From the NCBI RefSeq assembly GCF_988243305.1, contig NZ_OZ547136.1: DNA of 64,000 nt. One strand, 5' to 3'. Below, one piece after another: positions 27,901-30,900 of the stretch (position 1 is the first letter of the stretch; each line of letters begins with the position of its first letter). Made by a program: the position numbers.

Positions 27901-30900
27901 GTCATCCGCTGTTTTTTCACTGTCATTCCGCCAGCAGTTTTTCACAGCCCGGGTAAGGCGCATCACGTCGGTGATCTCCACACTGGCCAGATAGTTACGG
28001 ATGATGTGTTTTGCCATTGATACCGCCAGATGATTTTTCCCGGTACCGCAACTGCCGGTCATAACAAGACTGGTACCGTTCTCCAGCATATCTGGCCAGT
28101 TCTCCGCATAGCGGCGACAGGCCGCAAGATTTCTGGCTGCGTCAGGATTAACCTCCAGATAATTATCAAACTCGCAGTCCCGAAAACGCAGAGCAATTCC
28201 GGCGTTATCAGTCAGTTCTTCCGCCTTGAGGGACGACAGTTCCATGGTCAAATCACTGGCCTCAGCGATCAAGCAGTCAGGGCAGCATGAAATTTTTTCT
28301 CTGTCCTCGCCATTACGATCGATCCACACCAGTATATGCGTACGATATTTACCGTGTTTTTCGCAATATCCGCGACCTTCACGCATCAGGCAGGAACGAT
28401 AAGGCCATGGCTTTTCGCCCTTCTGAGCAAATGCAATCTCTGCCCGTAACTCATCCATTTCTGCCCGTAACTCATCCATTCGCGCCTGTAGTCTTGTTTG
28501 TTTCTCACGTTGGTCAATCGTCATCATCGCTGTCACCTCAGAATGTCAATTTGTTACTGGATTTACCGAATTTGTCAGACATGGCTCCCAGGCCAGCCAG
28601 GACATCGACCTGTCGCTGTCGCCCACCTCCGTGAGCGGCTGGCTGTTGCCAGTAATCTTCGAAGTGACGATCGGGTCCAAAGAACGTCGCAGCCTGCTTC
28701 ACGAACTGTGTGCCGGTATTTCCTGTAGCACGTACCCAGGCGGCATACCGCTTCACGCCATCAAGCATGGTCTCCGGTTTTATTCCCTCCCTGATACGGG
28801 CTTTCCAGGCTTTGAAGGCCGCTGACTTGGAATTGCCACCAGCACGTTTGGGATATTCCTGCCAGGCCTGTTCAAATTCCGGTGAATATTCCTGTCGGGC
28901 AGAACGCGCAGACGCGTCAGCGGATGCATCAATAGTGTTTTTAGTCTCCGTTGTAATCTCTGTAGTAATCTCTGTATTTGTATCAACATTCGGCGTATCC
29001 CCTGTTCCGTTATGACGTCGGGGGGTGTTCCGTTTTAACGTAATAGCTGTATCGCTGATTGCATTATTGCTGTTACTTTCTGGCGAAACAGAAGAAGGTG
29101 TGGTGATGGCCGCAATTGCCTGTGGGTTGATCCCGACAAACAAAATATTGCTGCATTTCACCCCATCGAGCATTTCCACCGTGCGTAAATCCAGAGTAAT
29201 AAACCCTGCATCGCGCAGACGCTTCAGCGCATCTGCGGTTTCCCTTTTCCCGAAACCAAACTGCTCAGCAAACGCCTGGTAGCTTCTTTGCAGTTTGTCG
29301 CCCTGAAAACGCTTGCGATATCCCAGCAACGCTCCGGTGTGCTCATCCCTGACCTCTGTCGGGCGGTACCAGTAAACGATCTCTGAAAGCAGAGCGATAG
29401 CCGTCGCATCCGGACGCCCACTGGGTAGTCGAATATATTTCCACCAGTTCGCAGGTGTAACATTGCCGGAAATATTAATTTGACCAATAGCCATAACTTC
29501 CGGTGTGGGGGCGTAACGGCTCATACAACCTCCTTCCGCGGCATGAGAATTGTGTAGCCACGCGCAGGTTGTAGTCGGGCTTTTGCATCAATAGTAAGCG
29601 TTGCAATTTTTCGGATATGAAGATAACCAGCTCTTTCCAGTGCCAGGGTTTCCCTGAATATCGCTTGCTTAGAACAACAGCAGAAATCAGCAAGCACCTG
29701 ATGATCAATAACTCTCTCGCCTTCACCGTCTGAAGAACCCGACATCAAAACACGCAACATAATTAGGCGCTGAATCGGGTTATCGAAAGCACATCCGCAC
29801 ACAAACTGAAAACAGTTCACGCCACACCTCCCAGACGCTTAAACATTTTTCCAGACAGAAATACCGCCAGAGGGTAACTGATGGTGTAGCTACGCCCCTG
29901 TAGTTCGCACACGACTTTCTGGCTTTCAGCGTTGACTAGGCAAACCCGCAGAACGTGACCGTTGCTGGTGGCGAACCACTGCCCCACACGGGGGCAACGG
30001 TTGTATCGGTGATACAGGGAATTAACGATGTGGCGGATCATGGACGCACCTCCACCGTAGTTACGTATTTAACCGGGCTACCTTTCATTGAGATGGTTTC
30101 ACACATCTCTGCCGCTTTCAGTTCCGCTGTTTTTCTGGATTTATAGCGACGGTGCCAGACAGATACATCCGTGCGAACTGATACATCGTTTCTGTATTCC
30201 GTAGTGGAGATGATGATTTCGTAACTAATCATGGGCGAACCTCCTTGTCAGAACCATTCAGCCTGGAATCAACAAGTGCAGCGCCAAAAACAGCATCACC
30301 AACACGGTCGTACAGTTTGCTAGCCAGCGGAGATTCAACGGCCTTAAGCATTGGATAAAGCTGGCTTGTCCAGATTTGATGGATTTCACGCAAATGCAGG
30401 TATACGCCTCTGGCGTTTCGTGCGACAGCTGACATATCAGACGCATCGGCACCTGATAAACTCTTCTCCATCAGGTTAAAGGCGTTGATGTATGCCTCTT
30501 TGAACCGGGCTGCACGTTTGCCAGTAAAGCCCATAGCAAGGAACGCGAAGCCATCACGGGTGATTTGATAGCAAGGTAGTTTGCGGCCTGTGCAATCGGT
30601 GTAATCACTCACCGAAAAATTGCGGGCAGTGAATGATGCGGAGCATTCAAGCGTGCGGATCTTTTTCAGTACATCGTCATGACGCTTGGAGAAGAAGTTG
30701 GCAACAGCCAGGGATGAAGTAACAGCCTGACCATCAACGATGGCAATTTCAGGTTGAGTGAGGGTTGGGATCGTAGCCATGATGGCAGCCTCCGTTGACT
30801 GTGGAAAACTTCCACCACCGGAGCTGCGAAACTCACTGGTGGCAGACTGAACAGGGTTCGCAGTACCGGCGTCAACGGAGACCGGCGAGCCTTTCGGCTC

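Follow-up and report, generated by a model that had tools for sequence, protein, structure and literature searches.

An in-frame 21-bp tandem repeat of varying copy number in the DnaC-type helicase-loader gene of an Escherichia coli prophage

Introduction

A perfect tandem duplication within the coding region of a replication protein raises the question of whether it is an assembly error, the private accident of one strain or a site at which the gene changes its length again and again, and, in the last case, whether the changes matter to the protein. Such a duplication is present in the window studied here (i.e., the whole stretch of DNA that was analysed, 64,000 nucleotides). An earlier note on this DNA reported a perfect 21-bp duplication that doubles the peptide MDELRAE in a predicted N-terminal coiled coil of a DnaC-like gene, read it as a recent slipped-strand event and as a site of possible length polymorphism, and proposed a comparison with homologous genes in other strains. 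The reading that we favour, at a probability of about 0.85, is that of a lambdoid prophage gene with an in-frame 21-bp minisatellite, in which one copy is ancestral, the unit was duplicated once, and recurrent slippage has since changed the copy number in heptad steps that the protein presumably tolerates. We describe here the gene and its repeat, the distribution of the copy-number alleles and their probable origin, together with the other explanations that were weighed.

The helicase-loader gene and its replication module

The duplication lies in the gene of an AAA+ ATPase (Table 1). A longer version of its reading frame (27628-28536, minus strand) starts at a GTG at 28536 and encodes 302 aa; the PGAP start codon is the ATG at 28527, which is preceded by a GAGG motif. 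The product matched the Pfam model IstB_IS21 (PF01695) with 53.1 bits (cutoff 24.1), Bac_DnaA was also matched, and the comparison with PHROG_50 ('DnaC-like helicase loader') gave 1.9e-87. Residues 93-296 align with residues 44-242 of E. coli DnaC (6QEL; phmmer, 3.9e-29), and the Walker A (GSCGTGKNHLA) and Walker B (DLLIVDEVG) motifs align with the sequences GTGKNHLA and DLLVIDEIG of DnaC. The AF2 model of the loader (pLDDT 87.8, pTM 0.81) was matched by Foldseek to 6QEM_G (E=2.5e-13, TM 0.72). By profile, motifs, fold and the neighbouring helicase gene the loader belongs to the DnaC/IstB clade of AAA+ proteins, so that 'DnaC-like gene' was a fair label.

The gene is part of a module in the order initiator, loader, DnaB-type helicase, the initiator being the first of the three genes. 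The start of the helicase gene overlaps the stop of the loader gene by 4 bp (ATGA), and this helicase is presumed to be the cognate partner of the loader. In AR_0372, the loader gene of which is 100% identical to that of the window, the module belongs to a lambdoid prophage next to yecN and a DUF72 gene. An integrase, a LexA-family repressor, Rha regulators, Q, lysis genes and lambda-like head genes are likewise part of this prophage.

Table 1. Positions in the window of the repeat, of the predicted parts of the loader and of the three genes of the replication module
Feature	Position	Strand	Remarks
Tandem duplication, 2 x 21 bp	28439..28480	-	Two MDELRAE heptads, residues 17-30 (protein of 299 aa)
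Repeat copy 1 (5' in gene orientation)	28460..28480	-	Clean 21-nt gap in NR3736, phiP27 and Stx2_EH2201 aligned to the window
Repeat copy 2 (3' in gene orientation)	28439..28459	-	Sequence reading and alignment
DnaC/IstB-type AAA+ helicase-loader gene	27628..28527	-	299 aa from the PGAP ATG; WP_000988266.1, 'ATP-binding protein'
Predicted helix alpha1 (residues 4-36)	28420..28518	-	Holds the duplicated heptad; AF2 pLDDT >90 over residues 11-40
Predicted three-stranded beta module (residues 47-85), hairpin tip	28273..28389	-	AF2 strands 47-55, 59-69 and 75-79
Predicted helix alpha2 (residues 83-107)	28207..28281	-	AF2 (83-107/109); antiparallel partner of alpha1, linker into the AAA+ domain
AAA+ ATPase domain (~residues 113-296)	27640..28191	-	Walker A/B; homologous to E. 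coli DnaC residues 44-242
Replication-initiator gene, upstream of the loader, 328 aa	28538..29524	-	PHROG_270 replication initiation protein; DnaD-like C-terminal part
DnaB-type replicative helicase gene, downstream of the loader, 466 aa	26231..27631	-	DnaB_C 6e-74

Sequence, position and reading frame of the repeat

Read directly from the window, the array consists of TCTGCCCGTAACTCATCCATT twice, perfect and head to tail. Tandem Repeats Finder agreed (period 21, 2.0 copies, 100% matches, score 84) and placed it as the top-scoring tandem repeat of the 64-kb window. There are exactly two units, the neighbouring base on each side breaking the repeat. A brute-force scan of the window for other perfect tandem duplications with a period of at least 9 yielded one (a 12-mer at 28953), and by chance about 1.5e-8 perfect duplications of period 21 would be expected in 64 kb.

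In coding orientation (minus strand) the unit reads AATGGATGAGTTACGGGCAGA, shifted by one base relative to the codon frame. The coding reading across the array is ...CGA ATG GAT GAG TTA CGG GCA GAA ATG GAT GAG TTA CGG GCA GAG ATT..., the product is R-MDELRAE-MDELRAE-I, and GAA, the codon at the junction, specifies Glu just as the original GAG does. With 2.0 perfect copies of a unit that is a multiple of 3, the reading frame of the loader stays intact at 299 aa. The perfection of the duplication, its frame and the doubled MDELRAE are thereby as the earlier note had given them. Either copy 1 or copy 2 can be taken as the extra unit relative to the single-copy alleles.

[quoted passage not shown]

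AF2 was run on the whole loader and on residues 1-112 alone. It predicts an antiparallel hairpin of two helices with a small beta module at its tip (Table 1), and the repeat falls in the first of these helices. The N-terminus of DnaC binds DnaB. The hydrophobic a and d positions of alpha1 (L13, M17, L20, M24, L27, I31 and A34) form one continuous heptad register, of which the duplicated unit MDELRAE is exactly one heptad. The prediction shows both the a/d periodicity and the packing on a partner helix that are expected of a heptad coiled coil, in agreement with the predicted N-terminal coiled coil of the earlier note. In the beta module, the pairs C55-x2-H58 and C82-x2-C85 are invariant across the family alignment of 29 clusters described below, which suggests that C55, H58, C82 and C85 make up a putative structural zinc site.

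A phmmer comparison found no sequence match of the N-terminal 92 residues to DnaC or DnaI, and the domain is uncharacterised (no Pfam family; a PHROG of unknown function). In both DnaC and DnaI it is the N-terminal domain that binds the helicase (PMC2673437). Because of its position and by analogy with these N-termini, the hairpin of the loader is probably a helicase-binding domain.

Distribution of the two-copy allele and ancestral state

Using megablast, the loader gene was found in 282 of 5,426 complete E. coli genomes. Matches of at least 99% identity came from 139 records and, among the matches listed, all were 909 bp long; the more divergent alleles measure 888 bp. A 63-nt probe of three units, for which megablast demands at least 28 exact bases and hence at least two tandem units, detected the two-copy allele in 142 of the 5,426 genomes, each match extending over the 42-bp span. 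In five complete genomes the gene is 100% identical to that of the window. Regarding IMG/VR, an exact 40-mer across the junction between the units was present in 43 contigs, all with exactly two units and with identical flanks, and the single-copy pattern was present in 53; such contig counts, here and below, are skewed by over-sampled clones, many of the two-copy genomes being apparently ST131.

Single-copy alleles are carried by phiP27, Stx1/Stx2 phages, PhiR49_2 and NR3736. The two-copy allele was absent from 20 of 20 sequenced phage records, which belong to other allele clades. The family was further aligned as 29 clusters formed at 90% identity and reaching down to 53% identity (from Klebsiella, Salmonella, Enterobacter, Citrobacter, Serratia, Pantoea and others). 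In this alignment the other 28 clusters are single-copy, the seven-residue insertion is confined to the cluster of the query, and no other indel was found in alpha1. Because the phage homologues and the 28 other clusters are all single-copy, one copy is, on this comparison of sequences, the ancestral state, and the duplication is derived within one allele clade of E. coli and Shigella. The comparison with other strains that had been proposed has thus produced both the one-copy relatives and the 142 complete genomes with the two-copy allele.

Copy-number series and recurrent change

Synthetic versions of the main protein background with 0 to 4 copies of the unit were searched for exactly among ~15 billion proteins. 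The versions with one copy (292 aa), two copies (299 aa) and three copies (306 aa), which are identical except for the repeat, were present in 328, at least 1000 and 8-14 contigs, respectively; the 0-copy (285 aa) and 4-copy (313 aa) versions were not found in this exact look-up.

The alleles were also placed by the sequence of the gene and of its flanks. When the repeat was collapsed, the 47 gene sequences within 5 SNPs of that in the window (from IMG/VR, the window itself and RefSeq) fell into nine gene haplotypes. The two-copy state occurs on seven of these and the one-copy state on four, two of which also carry two-copy alleles. Among RefSeq complete genomes within 0.2% of the gene in the window, two (NR3736 and 20AR0300) are single-copy, versus ~140 that are two-copy. 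Four single-copy loci have a nearest two-copy locus at a very short distance, namely L095 and L023 (1 SNP in 4 kb of flank), L001 (NR3736) and L011 (2 SNPs in 4 kb), L048 and L004 (0 SNPs in 2 kb), and L049 and L019 (1 SNP in 1.3 kb), and the four pairs stand on mutually different flank backgrounds.

The three-copy protein is encoded on a complete chromosome (CP164306.1), in draft genomes and in human-gut metagenome assemblies; a 33-nt query specific for three copies did not find the allele in the 5,426 RefSeq complete genomes, nor was it found in IMG/VR. Three perfect units were present in 8 of 8 three-copy loci examined, which lie on at least four flank backgrounds (these loci were sampled by targeted look-up, so that their counts are not rates). 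Four of the five three-copy flank groups are 0-2 SNPs per 3.3 kb away from a two-copy locus and 9-490 SNPs away from other three-copy loci. The fifth, consisting of L102, L106, L107 and L108 (mutually identical), has its closest two-copy locus at a distance of 9 SNPs. Matches in the 95-99% identity band of the triple-unit probe were also considered as three-copy alleles and were discarded, being mostly a minus-strand artefact of alignment extension.

A neighbour-joining (NJ) tree was built from the 2.8-kb flanks of 51 close-clade loci. Fitch parsimony on this tree gave at least 11 copy-number changes, a number of independent events that recombination between co-resident or related prophages could inflate by shifting the indel across backgrounds. 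One group of the tree with no more than 2 SNPs holds one-, two- and three-copy alleles. Because one- and three-copy loci are near-identical to two-copy loci on several backgrounds, with at least 11 changes, the mixture of copy numbers on near-identical flanks indicates recurrent slippage. The locus shows what is expected of an in-frame VNTR of the slippage type, i.e., an intact frame, length alleles on the same background and recurrence on the NJ flank tree. The length polymorphism that had been put forward as possible is therefore real: alleles of one, two and three copies exist on one protein background, with flanks 0-2 SNPs apart.

Origin, mechanism and age

The course of events under the favoured reading would be as follows. 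In one lineage of the loader gene, a single 21-bp unit would have been duplicated in tandem. In the resulting perfect head-to-tail pair, strand slippage or misaligned pairing during replication would repeatedly drop a copy (2 to 1) or add one (2 to 3), and otherwise identical prophages would come to differ only by multiples of 21 bp. Short tandem direct repeats in E. coli are well known to undergo slipped-strand mispairing, and we infer that the changes from two copies to one and from two to three arose by such mispairing between the perfect units. The unit being one heptad, each step would keep the hydrophobic a/d stripe in phase and make the helix longer or shorter by ~1 nm (about two turns); the preserved phase is presumably the reason why the variants are tolerated and why one to three copies persist.

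The founding step from one copy to two is of another kind. Alignment with single-copy alleles revealed zero microhomology at the original duplication junction (GCGCG/AATGG at the start and CAGA/GATTG at the end, the slash marking the boundary), and because of this the step was not textbook slippage between short direct repeats. The adjacent heptad-coding stretches are weakly alike by inspection (9/21).

Regarding age, two-copy alleles differ from one another at up to 7 of 888 sites, and a SNP inside the repeat seems real in three genomes (FAH, EC22 and MEC2025-PR). Perfect identity over 42 bp is as expected from that divergence and is, taken alone, no sign of a very recent event. To judge from its distribution among the sequenced genomes, the duplication is clade-wide and not private to a strain. 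Of the recent slipped-strand event suggested earlier, the slippage is retained, in the form of a polymorphism with recurrent changes, and the recency is given up in view of the clade-wide occurrence and the divergence among the alleles.

Functional consequence of the copy-number changes

The flanks that are identical between copy-number states include the helicase gene, and the copy number does not covary with this adjacent downstream gene. The latter result argues against co-adaptation and for near-neutral instability, which is favoured here for that reason, the near-neutrality of the variants being itself inferred. Confident neutrality is withheld because the family fixes the length of alpha1 and because the 20 phage records are all without two copies. 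The strict helix length seen across the aligned family means that length may matter and makes neutrality an assumption.

We consider it unlikely that the repeat is instead a contingency locus for adaptive length tuning, in which selection acts on the number of heptads in alpha1 and thereby alters the engagement of the hairpin with the phage or host helicase, or the evasion of an inhibitor. The repeat does sit in what, in DnaC and DnaI, is the helicase-binding domain, and with an alpha1 of otherwise invariant length in the family a seven-residue change is not obviously harmless; two copies, although the derived state, are moreover the most frequent in the clade, and the flank tree has the copy number changing recurrently. 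However, selection of this kind is at odds with the missing covariation between copy number and the allele of the adjacent helicase gene, and the predominance of two copies can be explained by clonal over-sampling. Heptad indels occur in no other clade of the family in the 29-cluster alignment. There are, furthermore, only three states, with three copies rare and zero and four absent, a pattern that mutation and drift under mild constraint fit equally well.

The more specific proposal that the repeat acts as a mutable 'ruler' in the helicase-binding hairpin, with frequent switching between one, two and three copies altering the geometry of loader and helicase, strikes us as distinctly improbable. 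If it were true, the repeat would bear, for example, on which helicase (phage or host) is used or on escape from an inhibitor, and the prophage population would hold pre-existing replication variants. A phase-variable on/off contingency locus was considered separately and rejected; with a 21-bp unit, every copy number is in frame.

Other explanations

The unit might instead function as DNA, as origin iterons or as a site bound by some other protein, its place within the loader gene being incidental; lambdoid origins sit within replication genes, and phage iterons are similar in length to 21 bp. This is very improbable, however: the window has two copies and nearly all relatives have one, the unit is conserved as coding sequence, and the repeat is without an adjoining AT-rich tract. 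Iteron-like, lineage-specific repeat clusters are found elsewhere, in the hypervariable central part of the initiator gene upstream, and a repeat search of that gene (28538..29524) found no convincing iteron set. Origin iterons are kept in relatives in several copies (usually at least three), which is not the pattern of the 21-bp unit.

That the true state is a single copy and the duplication a product of the assembler or of sequencing is effectively refuted, because the same allele recurs across independent assemblies (the identical 42-bp structure with its flanks in the 142 independently assembled genomes and the 43 IMG/VR contigs, the exact protein in the contigs of the two-copy class, and the identical gene in the five complete genomes), and every modern read is longer than 42 bp, so that a repeat of this size is an atypical cause of collapse or expansion.

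A mosaic boundary at the repeat was likewise rejected: megablast matches of Stx phages begin at query base 79, and the alignment there is one of ordinary single-copy alleles with few upstream SNPs.

Significance

The minisatellite reading makes the locus an ordinary in-frame polymorphism of the VNTR type, which is of a known kind and previously undescribed in this gene family; no paper with the unit sequence or the peptide was found in a literature search. Its significance is mainly practical, and current understanding is unchallenged. With its 1-3 copies, the repeat offers a real and well-behaved 21-bp length marker for a prophage that is widespread among E. coli and Shigella, and it could help to tell closely related lysogens apart. 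Annotation and variant-calling pipelines should expect it rather than flag it as an error. The alleles also provide, ready-made, a natural insertion series for studies of phage helicase loading, in which the N-terminal hairpin of a DnaC-type loader differs in length by single heptads.

Comparison with known systems

Bacterial and phage in-frame VNTRs share with this locus the perfect head-to-tail copies, the preserved frame and the recurrent gains and losses on otherwise identical alleles. The array described here differs from them in being very short (1-3 copies), in lying in a replication protein rather than in a surface or adhesin protein, and in a founding duplication without microhomology at its junction.

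Regarding E. coli DnaC (6QEL/6QEM), the AAA+ domain is homologous and has the same GTGKNHLA, and the loader gene adjoins a DnaB-type helicase gene; DnaC has a short N-terminal segment, whereas the loader has a long helical hairpin with the Cys/His beta module at its tip. The N-terminal domain of Bacillus subtilis DnaI has Cys67, Cys70, His84 and Cys101 as zinc ligands and binds the helicase (Loscha et al. 2009, PMC2673437). As in DnaI, an N-terminal domain with three Cys and one His as candidate zinc ligands precedes a DnaC-type AAA+ domain in the loader, the hairpin and Cys/His module of which thus resemble DnaI-N, by analogy, in role and in ligand composition. In sequence and in predicted fold, however, the hairpin is unlike DnaI-N (four helices and two strands), and neither supports the idea, which was also considered, that the N-terminal domain is homologous to DnaC-N or DnaI-N.

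Known phage relatives are L18 of phiP27 ('DnaC-like helicase loader', NP_543070.1) and its homologues in Stx phages, which belong to the same family, stand in the same module order and share 93-97% DNA identity with the loader gene, but all of which are single-copy for the 21-bp unit.

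Gene organization of the replication module

The replication module, composed of the initiator, the helicase loader (a DnaC/IstB-type AAA+ protein) and the DnaB-type helicase, is tightly coupled. The start codon of the helicase gene overlaps the stop codon of the loader gene (ATGA). At the other end of the loader gene, the initiator stop codon is followed by an in-frame GTG 2 bp downstream and by the ATG selected by PGAP 11 bp downstream, and the Shine-Dalgarno motif of the loader (GAGG) overlaps the initiator stop codon. The GTG listed as the start of a 302-aa loader ORF is probably not the real start.

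Features of the replication module
Feature	Position	Strand	Remarks
Helicase start/loader stop overlap	27628-27631
Loader N-terminal domain	28207-28518	(-)	residues 4-107; predicted structure
Initiator/loader junction	28527-28540		initiator stop at 28538-28540
6-bp deletion in initiator gene	~28909	(-)	GCGCCA missing
12-bp tandem repeat in initiator gene	28945-28976		2.7 copies; unit TCTCTGTAGTAA; see also ~28940-29045

[quoted passage not shown] It yielded no match in Pfam, and residues 22-84 correspond to PHROG_22964 ('unknown function'). According to a high-confidence structure prediction, two antiparallel helices form a hairpin whose tip bears a three-stranded beta module. The motif C55-x2-H58...C82-x2-C85 in this module is invariant across the family and represents a putative zinc site. 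DnaI-N holds an analogous position, but its fold differs from the one predicted here.

Small indels and repeats

The initiator gene contains a second small slippage-type indel of the module. Three relatives with a single-copy loader (NR3736, phiP27 and Stx2_EH2201) read GACGCGTCT[GCGCCA]GCGCGTTCTG at the site of the 6-bp deletion, which is flanked by a GCGC direct repeat and preserves the reading frame, resulting in initiator alleles of 328 aa vs. 330 aa. Both alleles were found beside loaders with two and with three copies of the 21-bp unit (MDELRAE).

The 12-bp repeat, encoding TEITTEITTE, falls in the hypervariable central part of the initiator gene; phiP27 has longer, different direct repeats at this position. 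Lambdoid origins and iterons would be expected here; a convincing iteron set was not found there.

In megablast matches, the two-copy loader alleles of E. coli FAH, EC22 and MEC2025-PR appear to have one mismatch inside the 42-bp repeat (97.6% or 95.6%). Such imperfect copies should slip less readily.

Prophage context in strain AR_0372

In AR_0372 (NZ_CP027134.1), whose loader gene is 100% identical to that of the window, the lambdoid prophage is inserted next to yecN and a DUF72 gene. Its layout downstream of Q resembles that of Stx phages, with an Ile/Arg/Arg tRNA cluster along with an esterase of the SASA family; stx genes are absent from this prophage. Several genes of its early region are frameshifted pseudogenes.
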